A stretch of 64,000 bases of DNA from a virus (Duplodnaviria > Heunggongvirae > Uroviricota > Caudoviricetes), in IMG/VR virus record IMGVR_UViG_2585427757_000006; one strand, 5' to 3'. The translations under genes were made by a program, and so were the position numbers. The notes beneath the pieces are model-generated. The model ran no database searches and was not told the DNA's origin. It saw nothing but the letters and a program-made list of their open reading frames with translations. This document shows, piece by piece, positions 33,160 through 41,891 of this stretch. Position 1 is the first letter of the stretch. Every line of letters begins with the position of its first letter.

Positions 33160-33965
33160 TGTGTTCAGGCTGGTGGAAAGAACTTCTCCAGCGTGTGGTT
33201 GATAGCCTTATCAATGTGCATCAGGTGCCAGACGACCATATCTTTGCTTCCAATGCCGCGAGTGTAGATGAAGTGTCAACAAAAACTGGCCACCGAGTTA
33301 GAGTTTTTCCAGTATCGATTTTCCGATTCATTTGGGGGTAATCCACCGTTATATTCGTGCGGTCTTAGTGCGCTGTAATATCCAACGATATAGTCCGTTA
33401 TGGCGTGAGCTGCCTCGCTGAAGCTTACGTAACCCACCACCGGCATCCATTCGTTCTTCAGACTCCTGAAGAAGCGTTCCATTGGGCTGTTATCCCAGCA
33501 GTTTCCGCGCCGGCTCATACTCTGCCTGATCTGGTATCGCCACAATAACTGCCGGAACTGCCTGCTCGTATAATGACTGCCCTGATCGCTGTGGAACATC
33601 ACTCCGCCGGGCTTACCACGGGTTTCCCATGCCATTTCCAGCGATTTCATGGTGAGCCTGCTGTCCGGCGAGAACGACATGGCCCAGCCCACTGGTTTTC
33701 TTGCGAACAGGTCGAGAACAACGGCGAGGTACGCCCAGCGCTTACCCGTCCAGATATAGGTCACATCACCGCACCACACCTGATTTGGCTCGGTCACGGC
33801 GAACTGCCGTTCAAGGTAGTTAGGGATAGCAACATGTTCATGACCACCACGTTTATACCGGTGAGTCGGCTGCTGACAGCTGACCAGCCCCAGCTCCTTG
33901 GCAATTTGACGTCCTTTCAGGCCTGGTGACCCACCTAATAACTCTGAGACTGCCTTCAGCAAACC
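33160..33965 (-). mobile_element. IS3-family insertion sequence remnant, 5-prime truncated (no orfA)
   Basis: Contains only the C-terminal integrase-core portion of orfB; abuts hsdR stop. Confidence 0.65.
33276..33962 (-). pseudogene. IS3-family transposase OrfB, N-terminally truncated
   Basis: DDE core [41 protein letters not shown]. Confidence 0.75.
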
Positions 33966-33976
33966 ATCACTCCTTT

Positions 33977-38181: not shown

Positions 38182-39462
38182 CTATTGCTCAACCATTTCT
38201 GGGGTGATTTTTATTTTTCCTGTCACGGCGCTGTTGATCAGGGTGGTTTTGTATTCTTTAAGCTTTTCAATCTGCGACTTTTGGATATCAATCGTGCGAT
38301 TCAGATCTGGCTCAATTCCTTCAATGAACGAAATTATTTCTTGAATTTCATCTTTTGGTGGCACTGGAACCAATACACTTGCAAGACGATCCCTTGTTAA
38401 TTTTGGCTGTGCCGCACCAGAAATATATACCGTATAGTCCAATCCGCTTAATAATTCGGCCCAGTATTTAAAACCATGAAATTTTGGCTTAATAATATGT
38501 GCATGGTTATTCACCCAATACTTTCCAGTTGCAACAAAAGCCAATGGTGTTGACTTGCTTAGCAAATTCGCGCCATCTTCAGCGATCAAGATTAAATCTT
38601 CATCAAAGATGTAGTCATCAACATAATCGATAACACCACTTGCTCCGTAATACGGATATACGCCCTGTCTCGACTCTCTCTCAACTGCGCTTATTGGAAC
38701 TCTTCTACTGTTAAGAAACTCAAACGCATATCTCAATGACATTAAGTTCCAATGCGCTGGAATCTTACCAATCCAATCCACACCGGAGTCTTTCATTGGC
38801 ACATTGGGATCAAGCCCTTGGGTCACCGCCTGTTGGATGATGATCTGCTTACGCTCTTTCAGCAGGCTAATTTGCTGCTCTTTGATCGAAATCGCTTCGT
38901 CGATTAGAGCGGTTTTCTTGTCGAGAAAATTTGCAATTAGGGACTGCTCTTCTTCTGAAGGCAGAACAAAAGGAATCACCTTCATCCGTGCTTTTGAAAG
39001 GTCCCACTGACCAATCCTTACACCATCTGATGCACTACCAAAAAACGATACATATAACTTACTGCGTATCGCCCAATTGAAAAACTCAGGATTTATTGCC
39101 TTTGTAAAATCAAAAATAAAATACGCAGGACTTACAATTCCAGTGAACTTTGATACACCGTAAGAACCCTGCCACGCTTTCATTTTATTCATTCCAAATT
39201 GACCTTTCTCAAGCTTTTTATAGCCGCTAAGATCATCTGGTATAAAATTGTGATTTGACTCTTGATTATCCACGTCTCTCTCGATAACACCTTGTTCGCG
39301 TGTTATCGAAAGTAGTGGCAATTCAGGGCAGTTTTTGACCGACACCGGAGATAGGCACGAGCCTAACTTAACCAAGTCCCAATGCTCTGGAATCTCGCCA
39401 ATCCACTCATAACCAGAGTCACTATATTGATCATACTTTAGCGTTGAGGTAATGCTTTCCAT
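38182..39462 (-). CDS. hsdS: type I restriction-modification specificity subunit
   Basis: 426 aa, two-repeat architecture with conserved central and C-terminal helical spacers; 1-nt overlap with hsdM stop. Confidence 0.8.
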   Translation of the reverse strand: MESITSTLKYDQYSDSGYEWIGEIPEHWDLVKLGSCLSPVSVKNCPELPLLSITREQGVIERDVDNQESNHNFIPDDLSGYKKLEKGQFGMNKMKAWQGSYGVSKFTGIVSPAYFIFDFTKAINPEFFNWAIRSKLYVSFFGSASDGVRIGQWDLSKARMKVIPFVLPSEEEQSLIANFLDKKTALIDEAISIKEQQISLLKERKQIIIQQAVTQGLDPNVPMKDSGVDWIGKIPAHWNLMSLRYAFEFLNSRRVPISAVERESRQGVYPYYGASGVIDYVDDYIFDEDLILIAEDGANLLSKSTPLAFVATGKYWVNNHAHIIKPKFHGFKYWAELLSGLDYTVYISGAAQPKLTRDRLASVLVPVPPKDEIQEIISFIEGIEPDLNRTIDIQKSQIEKLKEYKTTLINSAVTGKIKITPEMVEQ

Positions 39463-41891
39463 TAGGCTTCTCCCTGAACTTCCGCCACTTTCACGCCTAA
39501 TATTTGTGCAATCAAACCATCAGCCTTCTGCTCTAGATTGATAATGTCAGTTGCTACTTCTTCAAGACTACGTAATGGCTTATGCAGATAGAAATACTTA
39601 TTGAAGCTGATTTCATAGCCAATTTTTACCGTATCTAGGTTTATCCATGCTTCATCGACATGAGGCTTCACTTCATCTAGGAAGTACTGGTAAATGCTTT
39701 GCTTTAATGGAACAGATTCTGTATCTCGCAGGTCTGAATTGGTCTCGTAAGTGATATACTCGCCTTTTTTACCGCCTTCTGCTGAAGGAACGGGGTAATA
39801 ACCAAAATCTGGCAAGTCAGCGACTTCACACTCATAGCGCTCCAGCAGGTCGTTTAATTTATCACCCGTTAATTTAACTACCTTTTTAACCACTTTCTTG
39901 GCGGTTTCGTCATACCAGCTCACCGCGTGAAGAATGGCATTTTTCTCAGGTGCTGAAAGCTTAATAGCATGGGCTTTTAGCGATTTATCAACTTGGGTTT
40001 TAAAGCTATTGAAGTCATCAAATTCAATGCTACCGATGTCAGCCATCAGCGTTTGTGCAGTTTCAAGCAATGCTTTTAGCGCCAGCCAGTGTTTCACATC
40101 AAGCAGTTTGGCCTTAGCCTTAGCATTGAGACTGATGTCGTTATCTTCACACCAAGAAAGAATGTCTTTCTCGATGGATTTTAAGAAGCTCTTTTTCTGA
40201 TCTGACCCGTAGCCAGTTTTTTCGTAAACACGTTCGCCGTGCTCTGCGTACACGTACTCCATCACTTCACTAAGTTGCTTATCAAAACGCAGTGGGGCTA
40301 TGGCATCTTGAGTAAACTTGGCTTTGCGGCGATCTGGGCGCTCGATAGTGACTTTGTAGTAGCCAAAATCGTCATTGCTGAATACCTTACTGGCGATGCC
40401 AACAGGATCATTGTTTGCATCCAGTGCTCTTTCAACATCCTTACACGCGAGGTAAGTATCGGTAATTTCCGTGATGTGCTCAGGCGCAAATTCGCAGTTT
40501 TTGTTACCTAAGTTCTTGCGCAACTTACGGTAGAGCAAGCTGGCATCAATTAATTGCACCTTACCTTTACGCGCCTCAGGTTTATTGTTGCTCAACACCC
40601 AAATGTAAGTGGTAATGCCAGTGTTATAGAACAGGTTATTAGGTAACTGAACGATGGCATCTAGCATGTCGTTTTCAATGATGAAGCGACGAATATTACT
40701 TTCACCACCGCCCGCATCTCCGGTAAAGAGCGATGAGCCGTTATGAACAGAGGCAATCCGGCTGCCTAATGGACTTACGCTCGGATCTTTCATCTTGTTG
40801 ACCATCTCCATTAAGAAAAGCAGCTGGCCATCACTCGAACGTGGCGTGGCATCCACCACTTCGAGATTTCCCCAATAGTCTTTCAGGCTAACCTTAAAAC
40901 GCGGGTCAATCACATCACTGCCGTCTTTAATGTACTTCTGTTCAGACGCCCAACTCTTACCGTATGGCGGGGTAGACAACATAAAGTCAAAGCGTGAAGC
41001 CGCAAACTCGTCGGTAGACAAGGTTGAGCCTACCTTGATGTTCTCAGGGTTGTTACCTTTGATCATCATGTCCGATTTACAAATCGCGTAGGTCTCGTCA
41101 TTGATCTCTTTGCCGTAAAGGTAAATATCTCGGCTGTCGTTCGGGTATTTCTCTTCAATGAAGTTTTGAGATTCAGTGAGCATACCACCGCTACCACACG
41201 CAGGGTCGTAAACGGTCATGGTCAATGGTAGCTGCTCTTTCACTGGGTCAAAAACCAAGTGTGTCATCAGCTCAATCACTTCCCTAGGTGTAAAGTGCTC
41301 ACCGGCTTCTTCGTTATTCTCCTCGTTGAACTTACGGATCAACTCTTCGAACACGTACCCCATACCCAGGTTAGTAAGGGCTGGCATCTTGTTGCCATCT
41401 GGGTCTTCGATCGTTTCATGAGTTAAGTTGATGTAAGGGGAAACAAACTTTTCGACGACATCAAGAAGGACTTGCTTTGAGGCCATGTGACGAATTTGCG
41501 ACTTGAGGTTAAAGCATTCAATGATTTCTTTAACATTATCGCTAAAGCTAAGCAGGTACTCTTCAAAGTTGGCGAGTAATATCTGTTGGTTATTCGTTGC
41601 GGTGTTGAACAGGGATTTCAGGGTCCATTTAGATGTATTGTAAAAAACATAACCACTAGCCGCCTTCAATGGTTCATCATCAAGCTCCGTGGCTTGCATC
41701 TCTTCTTTTTGGAACTTGACCTCTTCAAGCACGGCTTCTTTGGTGGGTTCAAGTAACGTATCTAAACGTCGTAATACCACCATAGGTAAAATCACATCGC
41801 GGTACTTACCGCGAACGTACACATCACGTAAACAGTCGTCGGCAATGTTCCATATAAATGAGATGAGCTTGTTATGTACACTATGATCCAT
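39462..41891 (-). CDS. hsdM: type I restriction-modification N6-adenine DNA methyltransferase
   Basis: N-terminal FIWNIADD, motif I PACGSGGML, motif IV LSTPPYG; start set at MDHSVHN. Confidence 0.85.
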   Translation of the reverse strand: MDHSVHNKLISFIWNIADDCLRDVYVRGKYRDVILPMVVLRRLDTLLEPTKEAVLEEVKFQKEEMQATELDDEPLKAASGYVFYNTSKWTLKSLFNTATNNQQILLANFEEYLLSFSDNVKEIIECFNLKSQIRHMASKQVLLDVVEKFVSPYINLTHETIEDPDGNKMPALTNLGMGYVFEELIRKFNEENNEEAGEHFTPREVIELMTHLVFDPVKEQLPLTMTVYDPACGSGGMLTESQNFIEEKYPNDSRDIYLYGKEINDETYAICKSDMMIKGNNPENIKVGSTLSTDEFAASRFDFMLSTPPYGKSWASEQKYIKDGSDVIDPRFKVSLKDYWGNLEVVDATPRSSDGQLLFLMEMVNKMKDPSVSPLGSRIASVHNGSSLFTGDAGGGESNIRRFIIENDMLDAIVQLPNNLFYNTGITTYIWVLSNNKPEARKGKVQLIDASLLYRKLRKNLGNKNCEFAPEHITEITDTYLACKDVERALDANNDPVGIASKVFSNDDFGYYKVTIERPDRRKAKFTQDAIAPLRFDKQLSEVMEYVYAEHGERVYEKTGYGSDQKKSFLKSIEKDILSWCEDNDISLNAKAKAKLLDVKHWLALKALLETAQTLMADIGSIEFDDFNSFKTQVDKSLKAHAIKLSAPEKNAILHAVSWYDETAKKVVKKVVKLTGDKLNDLLERYECEVADLPDFGYYPVPSAEGGKKGEYITYETNSDLRDTESVPLKQSIYQYFLDEVKPHVDEAWINLDTVKIGYEISFNKYFYLHKPLRSLEEVATDIINLEQKADGLIAQILGVKVAEVQGEA

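Follow-up and report, generated by a model that had tools for sequence, protein, structure and literature searches.

An SSU5-type phage-plasmid of Escherichia coli was found to carry a mobile four-gene restriction cassette in which an extra nuclease gene, here called X, lies inside a Type I restriction-modification (R-M) operon, raising the question of what X does there and how the cassette reached this element. The window analyzed is the whole 64,000-nucleotide stretch of viral DNA in IMG/VR record IMGVR_UViG_2585427757_000006.

Organization of the hsd cassette

The initial annotation, made from the letters of the window, had described the order hsdM-hsdS-X-hsdR on one strand with short gaps and overlaps. 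All four open reading frames are present on the minus strand where that annotation had placed them, and the junctions between them match.

39462-41891, minus strand: hsdM, 809 aa from the ATG at 41891
38182-39462, minus strand: hsdS, 426 aa, with two target-recognition domains (TRDs)
37009-38172, minus strand: X, 387 aa, PD-(D/E)xK nuclease fold plus DUF4268; member of PADLOC PDC-S11
33977-36994, minus strand: hsdR, 1,005 aa, full length, with Pfam and NCBIfam matches and motifs

The stop codon of hsdM and the start codon of hsdS share a 4-nt overlap (ATGA), and gaps of 9 and 14 nt separate hsdS from X and X from hsdR, respectively. As X is placed between hsdS and hsdR, it would be co-transcribed and co-transferred with the hsd genes. 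A simple scan found no sigma-70 promoter-like site in the retained 161-bp region upstream of hsdM, and the minus-strand hits were located only inside hsdM and hsdR. The bounds first proposed for the island, 33160 to 41891, had to be redrawn, as it extends from about 33270 to about 42131-42136.

HsdM matches N6_Mtase (1.3e-58) and HsdM_N (9.9e-23) in Pfam and MTase_I in PADLOC (3.4e-266), and it has a C-terminal extension of approximately 310 aa without an assigned domain. HsdS matches Pfam Methylase_S over residues 238 to 402 (6.6e-19) and PADLOC Specificity_I models over its full length (residues 9 to 420, 4.5e-125). In HsdR, where HSDR_N, ResIII, SWI2_SNF2, and T1R_D3-like domains were identified (Pfam/NCBIfam), the nuclease motif D...E-L-K...QTARY, helicase motif I AGSGKS, and a DEAH sequence at residue 431 were found. 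The features of a Type I system are present, namely, the HsdM domains with AdoMet-binding motif I (DPACGSG at residue 229), an HsdS with two TRDs, and an HsdR with a nuclease and an SF2 helicase motor.

An intact catalytic motif IV, (N/D)PP(Y/F), is not present in the HsdM of the window, which has TPPY, not NPPY (N307T; codon ACC at 40971-40973). The surrounding sequence reads LSTPPYGK in the window and LSNPPYGK in all 21 homologues compared, comprising 13 HsdMs of the same family, seven copies from conjugative elements (ICEs), and that of plasmid pNT1F31. Among recorded assemblies, only GCA_000700445.1 encodes the identical N307T protein. Other Type I methyltransferases lose methylation when motif IV is changed to APPA. 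As N307T falls within this catalytic motif, the Type I system here may not be fully functional, and the R-M half of this copy may be methylation defective. HsdR does not differ in length from the ICE copies; its one private substitution, S348N, is located in a loop. Thus, of the inactivating lesions that the initial annotation had allowed might escape the eye, a candidate was found in HsdM, with none in HsdR or in X.

IS remnants at the island junctions

Remnants of IS3-family elements and the other features of the junctions are as follows.

33269-33896, minus strand: right-end remnant of IS911 (IS3 family), 637 bp, consisting of the 3' part of orfB and an intact right inverted repeat (IRR)
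33884-33896: 13-bp microhomology (gene strand, GAGCTGGGGCTGG) where DNA downstream of hsdR meets internal orfB sequence of IS911
41892-42052, minus strand: upstream region from the conjugative element, made up of brxR-hsdM intergenic DNA and the last approximately 48 bp of brxR
42053-42136, plus strand: second IS3-family remnant, a 24-bp imperfect duplicate (42053-42076) and then a left end (42077-42136)
42124-42315, minus strand: truncated SPFH/band-7 lipoprotein gene (SSU5_062 homologue), 5' end, 63 codons

A 5'-truncated IS3-family element had been said to abut hsdR directly. The stump is real, as it matches rve (4.7e-32, Pfam) and positions 172 to 368 of the 369 in the IS3 transposase model and is 98.3% identical over window positions 33260-33896 to IS911 of phage Sf6, but the IS homology ends approximately 80 nt past the hsdR stop codon and does not abut the gene. 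The mechanically called ORF (33276-33962) extends approximately 66 nt beyond this homology. An intact IRR, TGAAGTGTCAACAAAAACTGGCC..., starts at 33269 and adjoins the phage-plasmid backbone at 33269/33270. The IRL, orfA, and the 5' part of orfB of IS911 are missing in the window but intact at the equivalent site of E. coli ET474, and this copy is a dead remnant. Homology to the ICE and to the E. coli chromosome ends at 33884, and that to IS911 ends at 33896; at the 33884-33896 junction, the chromosome of E. coli ET474 has 46 bp and then an intact IS911 IRL and orfA. The 13-bp microhomology is read as a trace of the deletion from which the IS911 stump resulted.

At the hsdM-proximal junction, the left end of a second IS3-family element (TGAATCGCCACAGGTTTAACAGAC...) is truncated against the backbone. 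Its 60-bp unit was found in 1,195 of 5,426 E. coli genomes, where it is located 4 nt upstream of partial transposase genes. Homology to SSU5 resumes at 42132, inside SSU5_062; the frame of the truncated SSU5_062 homologue now ends inside the IS remnant and is called as a gene in L091.

Origin and movement of the cassette

The view that the island is a later insertion is borne out by phage SSU5, which carries three different genes at this site, and the cassette replaces 1.47 kb of SSU5-type backbone. The closest match to the cassette is an IS911-flanked chromosomal island of E. coli (approximately 99% nucleotide identity); identity to a marine SXT/R391-type conjugative element is 93 to 96%. In SXT/R391 elements, the same hsdM-hsdS-X-hsdR block occupies the variable region next to traI ("hotspot 5"), and hot spot 5 of SXT carries R-M systems, including type I hsdR (LeGault et al., bioRxiv 10.1101/2020.12.16.423150). 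In metagenome contigs and in Alteromonas genomes, the ICE block has rumAB, an exonuclease gene, and brxR as neighbors on one side and traI plus a CBASS-like pair on the opposite side, whereas only the four genes and 161 bp of upstream DNA have moved onto the phage-plasmid, leaving the downstream genes and brxR, the upstream regulator gene of the ICE, behind. The blastn match to ICE sequence L006 extends to window position 42052, equivalent to ICE position 6133, which lies within brxR (5212-6180).

The cassette would have been inserted into the SSU5-type phage-plasmid in place of the 1.47-kb segment, and a later deletion at the 13-bp microhomology would have taken the left part of the flanking IS911; we infer this order of transfer events from the sequences compared. 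Exchange has also occurred within the cassette. TRD1 of HsdS is common to plasmid pNT1F31 while TRD2 differs (blastn, tblastn), and TRD2 of hsdS and X have been exchanged as a single recombination patch.

Domains and family of protein X

The D-x(n)-E-x-K signature initially noted at the N terminus of X is confirmed as D63...E77-N-K79. No variation occurs at E26, D63, K79, Q90, or Y94 among 40 homologues sharing 30 to 60% identity, and conservation of E77 is 90% or more; since these catalytic residues are conserved, the nuclease motif is regarded as real rather than a chance occurrence. An N-terminal NucS/RecB-like PD-(D/E)xK nuclease domain (approximately residues 1 to 100) is followed by an alpha/beta region to approximately residue 206, a long helix (209 to 251), and a C-terminal DUF4268 domain (238 to 372; 1.2e-39, Pfam), the fold of which resembles peptide-binding type III secretion chaperones and YbjN in structural comparison. 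Selection is purifying (pN/pS of 0.03 to 0.08). The family of PDC-S11/DUF4268 nucleases comprises 5,527 clusters at 50% identity, and copies with at least 98% protein identity were found in Escherichia, Salmonella, Vibrio, Alteromonas, Shewanella, Morganella, Providencia, Proteus, and Marinomonas.

PrrC (EcoprrI) is located within a Type I hsd operon at a position similar to that of X. The ABC-ATPase, Walker A motif, and anticodon-nuclease domain of PrrC are all missing in X; a pattern search detected no Walker A, and Pfam, NCBIfam, and PADLOC gave no PrrC, ABC, or ATPase match, so that identification of X as a PrrC anticodon nuclease was rejected, in agreement with the initial annotation. Of the families suggested there for comparison, DUF1016/YhcG was rejected as it gave no match at an E value of ≤0.01 to X (Pfam, NCBIfam) or to its 40 relatives (Pfam), while NucS proved to be the nearest fold and best structural match, though the C-terminal half of X is DUF4268. 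The RecB-like nuclease domain of NucS/EndoMS, with its D, ExK, and QxxxY, is present in X, but X has a nuclease-first order, an extra DUF4268, a mobile defense context, and no NucS N-terminal domain, and its score of 23.4 bits against an NCBIfam cutoff of 216 excludes NucS/EndoMS proper.

From end to end, X matches PADLOC model PDLC04913 (PDC-S11; residues 1 to 383 on positions 1 to 373 of 375, E = 1.4e-182), and it also matches seven further PDC-S11 models. The PDC set is defined by embedding, or "guilt-by-embedding" (Payne et al., bioRxiv 10.1101/2024.01.29.577857), and X, located within a Type I R-M operon, has this defining property. The earlier remark that genes in this position are often defense effectors is consistent with embedding being a recognized source of effectors. 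PDC-S11 is a prediction only, with no activity, target, or mechanism in the literature found; the copy of X described here is located on a phage-plasmid.

Genomic contexts of X homologues

Genes for hsdM or hsdR were found within 10 kb of the X homologue in at least 37 of 80 species-level loci, with the order M...X...R in 26 and an hsdR start within 250 nt of X in 19; in the remaining loci, no hsd neighbor was detected within 10 kb. The Type I neighbors belong to at least three families. As some homologues have no hsd neighbor detected and the Type I neighbors are from three or more families, X looks autonomous of the Type I genes. This autonomy may be overstated, since neighbors were detected by single-sequence phmmer searches of naive ORF calls, which can miss them and make the figure of 46% a lower bound. 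In pLR-46_1, hsdM has been removed by IS26, with X and hsdR intact.

Proposed role of X

In Type IV enzymes of the GmrSD type, DUF4268 is known as an accessory domain, and it is the only feature that X has in common with them. Like X, MdgA and MdgB combine a nuclease with DUF4268 and count as single-gene defenses, and each of the two families extends across many phyla. E. coli carrying MdgA or MdgB is protected against T4, though not against T4-GT7, which is unmodified; modified T4 DNA is degraded by purified MdgA, and MdgA-E77A is dead (PMC12366544). The glutamate of the ExK motif in X is also E77. Unlike X, which is part of a Type I operon, MdgA came from a metagenomic insert that yielded it as a single gene (Cell Host Microbe 2025, PMC12366544). 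X is a probable relative of MdgA, judging by shared domain content and coincident E77 numbering.

As DUF4268 occurs in both GmrSD and MdgA/B, X is read as modification dependent. On balance, we consider it probable that X is a modification-dependent restriction nuclease acting independently of HsdM, HsdS, and HsdR in a dual-system mobile cassette. HsdM, HsdS, and HsdR would form a Type I enzyme that marks self DNA and cuts unmarked DNA, while X, as a single-polypeptide (Type IV-like) endonuclease, would destroy phage DNA carrying hypermodified bases that escapes the Type I enzyme. The cassette would thus combine two restriction systems of opposite logic, with X complementing the Type I enzyme without needing the hsd genes. 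X is most likely an active nuclease that depends on DNA modification; no modified-base-reading domain (SRA, EVE, or YTH-like) was detected in it. A comparable arrangement is known from VPI-2 of Vibrio cholerae, where Type I R-M genes enclose TgvAB, a Type IV system resembling GmrSD (PMC11411939). TgvAB is likewise a second restriction system between Type I genes that is also common outside Type I clusters, with a proposed complementary cover of modified and unmodified DNA, but it consists of two proteins with DUF262/DUF1524 (ParB-like and His-Me), whereas X is a single PD-(D/E)xK protein in which, as in all 40 family members, neither domain was matched (Pfam).

Among the alternatives, X could be a defense nuclease that is not modification dependent and recognizes some other feature of invading DNA, for example, free ends, intermediates of replication, or structures specific to phages. 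Other features of this kind are recognized by the PD-(D/E)xK effectors of Shedu, Hachiman HamA, and Can2/Card1 type. X lacks a sensor domain for cyclic nucleotides, it has neither a helicase nor an ATPase as a partner, and the enzymes that DUF4268 accompanies, GmrSD and MdgA/B, are both modification dependent, making this reading unlikely, though it is the most probable of the alternatives.

The slot between hsdS and hsdR that X shares with PrrC, together with the resemblance of DUF4268 to peptide-binding proteins, would fit a guard or abortive-infection nuclease of PrrC-like logic that is silenced by the Type I complex and freed once a phage anti-restriction protein (Ocr, ArdA, or Stp-like) disables this complex, with DUF4268 sensing protein. 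This is decidedly unlikely, as no hsd neighbor was detected for approximately half of the homologues, the rest lie beside at least three unrelated Type I families, a poor fit with a specific protein-protein guard, and X lacks an ATPase or anticodon-nuclease domain. A little less probable still is that DUF4268 is a protein- or peptide-binding module like type III secretion chaperones and YbjN rather than a DNA reader and X a guard nuclease fired by a phage anti-restriction protein. If true, the recurrent embedding by hsdR would mean that Type I systems are under functional surveillance, and X would still be useful where R-M decays, as with HsdM N307T and in pLR-46_1.

It is very unlikely that X serves the Type I enzyme here as an accessory subunit, providing a second cleavage activity or processing HsdR-made ends. 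The tight operon spacing suggests co-translation, the hsdR start is close to X in the 19 loci noted above, and TRD2 and X were swapped together; against this, HsdR retains a complete nuclease motif of its own, and an obligate partnership is hard to square with standalone homologues and with neighbors from mixed Type I families. Only six residues of X differ between cassettes with different TRD2 sequences, and as X is nearly constant it does not appear to be matched to specificity. Least probable is a role outside defense, with X being either a NucS-like nuclease of repair or recombination or a selfish one that promotes exchange at the hsdS-hsdR junction, for although NucS is the best structural match and the recombination patch is centered on X and TRD2, X lacks the NucS N-terminal DNA-binding domain and falls far below the NucS cutoff, its contexts are mobile elements and R-M loci rather than repair operons, and the literature ties DUF4268 to restriction enzymes.

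Implications for the cassette and its family

The cassette is not a new kind of system, and the X family is already listed as a candidate anti-phage defense. With X as a modification-dependent nuclease, the cassette would be a compact example of two restriction strategies moving as one mobile unit, and it has spread across marine and enteric Gammaproteobacteria with a few percent nucleotide divergence. The comparisons show how such a cassette moves, by transfer involving IS elements and by homologous exchange that swaps an hsdS recognition domain along with the embedded gene. The locus is also a test case for the PDC-S11/DUF4268 nucleases, which are widespread and virtually uncharacterized except for the probable relative MdgA.

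Organization of the R-M locus

Five ORFs, all codirectional on the minus strand, extend from hsdM to a transposase remnant, as follows.

39462-41927, minus strand: ORF of hsdM, identified as HsdM by Pfam, NCBIfam, and PADLOC; start at the ATG at 41891 gives 809 aa, as annotated in RefSeq relatives
38182-39462, minus strand: hsdS, identified as HsdS by Pfam, NCBIfam, and PADLOC
37009-38172, minus strand: gene X, from the ORF map
33977-36994, minus strand: hsdR, identified as HsdR by Pfam, NCBIfam, and PADLOC
33276-33962, minus strand: ORF of the transposase remnant, the C-terminal two-thirds of an IS3-family transposase (Pfam, NCBIfam, and PADLOC)

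The hsdM and hsdS genes meet at an ATGA stop/start overlap, gaps of 9 nt and 14 nt separate hsdS from X and X from hsdR, respectively, and Shine-Dalgarno-like AGGA/AAGGG sequences precede X and hsdR. The ORF map, profile matches, and junctions thus confirm the order hsdM-hsdS-X-hsdR on one strand with short gaps and overlaps, as proposed in the initial annotation. Using a simple sigma-70 scan, no promoter-like site was found in the 161-bp region upstream of hsdM; minus-strand hits lay only inside hsdM and hsdR.

X is a predicted PD-(D/E)xK nuclease with a DUF4268 domain

The 387-aa X protein matched PDC-S11 end to end in PADLOC (1.4e-182). PDC-S11 is one of 145 candidates predicted from their embedding in BREX, DISARM, or R-M loci (bioRxiv 10.1101/2024.01.29.577857), in keeping with the earlier suggestion that genes in this position are often defense effectors. 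Pfam placed DUF4268 at residues 238 to 372 (1.2e-39), and the only NCBIfam match was a sub-threshold one to NucS at residues 15 to 102. An exhaustive profile-free search identified 5527 cluster representatives at E ≤ 1e-3, of which 472 also passed E ≤ 1e-30, the majority being approximately 370 aa and matching over their whole length. When the family alignment was used to search for homologues a second time, almost all of the copies returned were again at least 97% identical, and the sequence diversity of the family was drawn from the representative library and a genome scan.

Across an alignment of 40 representatives sharing 30 to 60% identity, E26, D63, V74, K79, Q90, and Y94 were invariant and E77 was at least 90% conserved. 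By sequence, these residues correspond to the E...D...ExK...QxxxY pattern of RecB/NucS-type PD-(D/E)xK nucleases, a conservation that upholds the N-terminal D-x(n)-E-x-K signature first noticed in X alone. All 40 representatives carried DUF4268 and 26 of them touched Pfam NucS_C. A few relatives of X (P0177, P0206, and P0244) harbor three to five tandem copies of DUF4268, an arrangement more suggestive of a modular binding unit than of a simple dimerization domain. As no PDB chain matched the X sequence at E ≤ 10, structure prediction was needed; the AlphaFold2 model built with the 40-representative alignment reached a pLDDT of 93.6. Comparison with four other copies indicated strong purifying selection on X (pN/pS of 0.03 to 0.08).

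Three other identities for X were considered. The NucS match has a low score and the N-domain is missing, and X was rejected as a true NucS orthologue. A PrrC-type anticodon nuclease, already doubted in the initial annotation, was dismissed because motif and profile scans (pattern search, Pfam, and PADLOC) found neither a Walker A motif nor an ATPase domain in X. DUF1016/YhcG, proposed for comparison, gave no match to X in Pfam or NCBIfam, or to the 40 relatives in Pfam.

X recurs between Type I genes

A one-genome-per-species collection yielded 80 X loci (49 to 99% identity), each from another species record, and hsd neighbors were sought by phmmer with the HsdM, HsdS, and HsdR of the window against the ORFs of these loci. 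With the counts being lower bounds, as the queries may overlook distant Type I families, hsdM or hsdR was found within 10 kb of X in 37 of the 80 loci and in 29 of the 51 whose flanks extend 5 kb or more in each direction. At 26/80 loci the genes follow one another on one strand as hsdM...X...hsdR, and at 19/80 hsdR started no more than 250 nt from X. Based on HsdM score, 13 loci carried the Type I family of the window, 2 a related family, and 20 distant families. The same queries detected no hsd gene at the remaining loci, where the neighbors look heterogeneous by eye (housekeeping genes, hsdS fragments, DUF262-like, KAP NTPase-like, and SNF2 helicase genes); these labels are impressions rather than scans, and naive ORF calls are unreliable in GC-rich genomes. 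The pattern, from lower-bound counts, is that of an autonomous gene lodging repeatedly between hsdS and hsdR. In this recurrent embedding X resembles DarTG2 and TgvAB, a Type IV system embedded in a Type I operon (PMC11411939), for both of which autonomous genes repeatedly lodged in Type I loci have been described.

A modification-dependent activity is favored for X

GmrSD Type IV enzymes recurrently carry DUF4268 as an accessory domain at the C terminus. Functional metagenomic selections have yielded two nucleases with this domain, MdgA and MdgB, which protected Escherichia coli against T4 but not T4-GT7; T4 DNA was degraded by purified MdgA much more efficiently than was T4-GT7 DNA, and MdgA-E77A was inactive (PMC12366544). 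Residue 77 is a glutamate in both MdgA and X, where it is the glutamate of ExK. As this predicted catalytic residue coincides and the N-terminal region of the X family is almost free of indels in the 40-representative alignment, MdgA is probably a member of the family, which provides a lead rather than a test. The occurrence of DUF4268 in GmrSD enzymes and the behavior of MdgA and MdgB lead us to favor X as a modification-dependent restriction nuclease, although the DUF4268 fold lends base recognition no independent support. Such a nuclease would cover hypermodified phages that escape the Type I enzyme, a role shown for TgvAB in VPI-2 (PMC11411939).

The island lies in an SSU5-type backbone between two IS remnants

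The flanks of the island (32060-33269 and 42132-46000) match Salmonella phage SSU5 at 82 to 87% identity, and the entire region is 99% identical to E. coli plasmids of approximately 110 kb, such as pNT1F31; on these matches, the window is an SSU5-type phage-plasmid. At least 80% of the region is common to 27 plasmid records, and E. coli elements of the SSU5 group have already been reported, in a survey of clinical phage-plasmids, to carry R-M systems. Between SSU5_065 and SSU5_061, SSU5 has three other genes (064, the NinX-like 063, and the SPFH gene 062). In the window, 1.47 kb of this DNA is replaced, with 064 reduced to its 3' end and the SPFH gene to a 5' stub of 63 codons, and the island is accordingly a later insertion, as first proposed.

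The backbone RecA-like gene (42610-43683, 357 aa) is uninterrupted in the window. Its pNT1F31 counterpart (2340 nt), annotated as a LAGLIDADG homing endonuclease, contains an insertion of ~1.27 kb (positions 13156-14424 of that locus, L001, relative to 43489-43491 of the window) that is probably an intein which not all copies have. Two compositional outliers lie elsewhere in the window, at 2001-3000 (GC skew +0.37, AT skew -0.34) and at 58001-59000 (GC content only 0.30).

X proteins at least 98% identical to that of the window occur in Escherichia, Salmonella, Citrobacter, Enterobacter, Morganella, Providencia, Proteus, and Edwardsiella, as well as in many Vibrio species, Alteromonas, Shewanella, Marinomonas, and Cellvibrio. 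The hsdM-hsdS-X-hsdR block was also found in Alteromonas genomes and metagenome contigs, preceded by rumAB-like genes, an RNase T-like exonuclease, and a BrxR-type WYL regulator and followed by two unknown genes, a SAVED/HNH and DncV-like (CBASS-type) pair, and traI. Judging from gene content, this layout would be the variable region beside traI of an SXT/R391-type integrative conjugative element (ICE); R-M cargo, type I hsdR included, is documented in SXT "hotspot 5" (bioRxiv 10.1101/2020.12.16.423150). At the nucleotide level, the ICE is homologous to window positions 33884-38281 (96%) and 39457-42052 (93%), with differing hsdS recognition domains. Only 161 bp of the DNA upstream of hsdM were carried over, the final ~48 bp of brxR among them, and the regulator gene was therefore left behind. 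In ICE loci L003 to L009 the BrxR-type WYL regulator lies ahead of the cassette (5212-6180), and beyond it (14219-18898) are unknown genes (361 and 183 aa), a YdjM-like gene, and the SAVED/HNH and DncV-like CBASS pair; none of these neighbors reached the phage-plasmid.

A nearer relative is an IS-rich island of E. coli chromosomes, present in 39 of 59 E. coli genomes with X. In strain ET474, this island is ~99% identical to window block 33884-42122 (98.9% and 99.7% over two aligned pieces), with an IS911-like element ahead of hsdM and, past hsdR, 46 bp followed by an intact IS911 left end and orfA. The truncated IS3-family element reported beside hsdR proved to be an IS911 remnant, which meets the plasmid backbone at 33269 through its intact right repeat. 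The window lacks the 46 bp of ET474, the IS911 left repeat, orfA, and the 5' part of orfB, and the breakpoint is a 13-bp sequence common to both partners (33884-33896); the remnant is therefore the product of a microhomology deletion in a once-complete IS911. At the other junction (42053-42136), a 24-bp imperfect tandem duplicate precedes the initial 60 bp of another IS3-family element (TGAATCGCCACAGGTTTAA...), which abuts the backbone. Of 5426 complete E. coli genomes, 1195 contain this 60-bp end, with as many as 16 copies in one genome, and it lies there a short way ahead of partial transposase genes; several lambdoid phages carry it too. Derivation of both remnants from one split IS911 was rejected, as the end at 42077-42136 differs in sequence and has the wrong orientation.

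The R-M component may be decaying

Inactivating lesions in the hsd genes had been named in the initial annotation as evidence that would count against it. HsdR shows none: the nuclease motif is complete, helicase motif I and DEAH are present, and the sole private change, S348N, is in a loop. HsdM retains motif I, but its catalytic motif IV reads TPPY through a private N307T change (codon 307 at 40971-40973). NPPY was present in all HsdM homologues examined, namely, 13 of the same family from other species, seven ICE copies, and that of the near-identical plasmid pNT1F31, and a single assembly (GCA_000700445.1) is the only recorded source of the exact TPPY protein. By analogy with other Type I methyltransferases, in which changing motif IV to APPA abolished methylation, N307T may be an inactivating lesion, or it may be a sequencing error. 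This Type I family (HsdM of ~800 aa and HsdR of ~1005 aa) is only distant kin of the structurally characterized EcoKI and EcoR124 families (PDB E-values of 1e-25 and 1e-11, respectively). The ~310-residue C-terminal extension of HsdM (39462-40390, residues ~500 to 809) contains no Pfam domain.

The closest X allele, with 100% protein identity, is on plasmid pLR-46_1 (L092; NZ_AP027538.1), where an IS26-mediated loss of hsdM and of hsdS sequence (its 5' half) has left hsdS'-X-hsdR (3969-9446) with X and hsdR intact. This deletion, together with HsdM N307T, indicates that the R-M component of this lineage may be decaying. A group II intron (ltrA) lies inside the neighboring IS3 remnant of pLR-46_1 and likewise in several other relatives.

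Between the window and pNT1F31, hsdM and hsdR are 99.8 to 99.9% identical, X is 97.3% identical (26 synonymous and 6 nonsynonymous differences), and the second hsdS target recognition domain (TRD2) is unalignable. Mismatches are concentrated in 37000-38740, and a patch of ~1.7 kb containing TRD2 and X was swapped as a unit between cassettes, presumably with the conserved hsdS center and the 5' end of hsdR as homology arms.

Overall, these results bear out the interpretation given in the initial annotation. The locus is a Type I R-M system with an embedded PDC-S11/DUF4268 nuclease, a kind already catalogued, and proteins identical to its products are annotated in RefSeq. Its worth is as a well-defined test case rather than a surprise.
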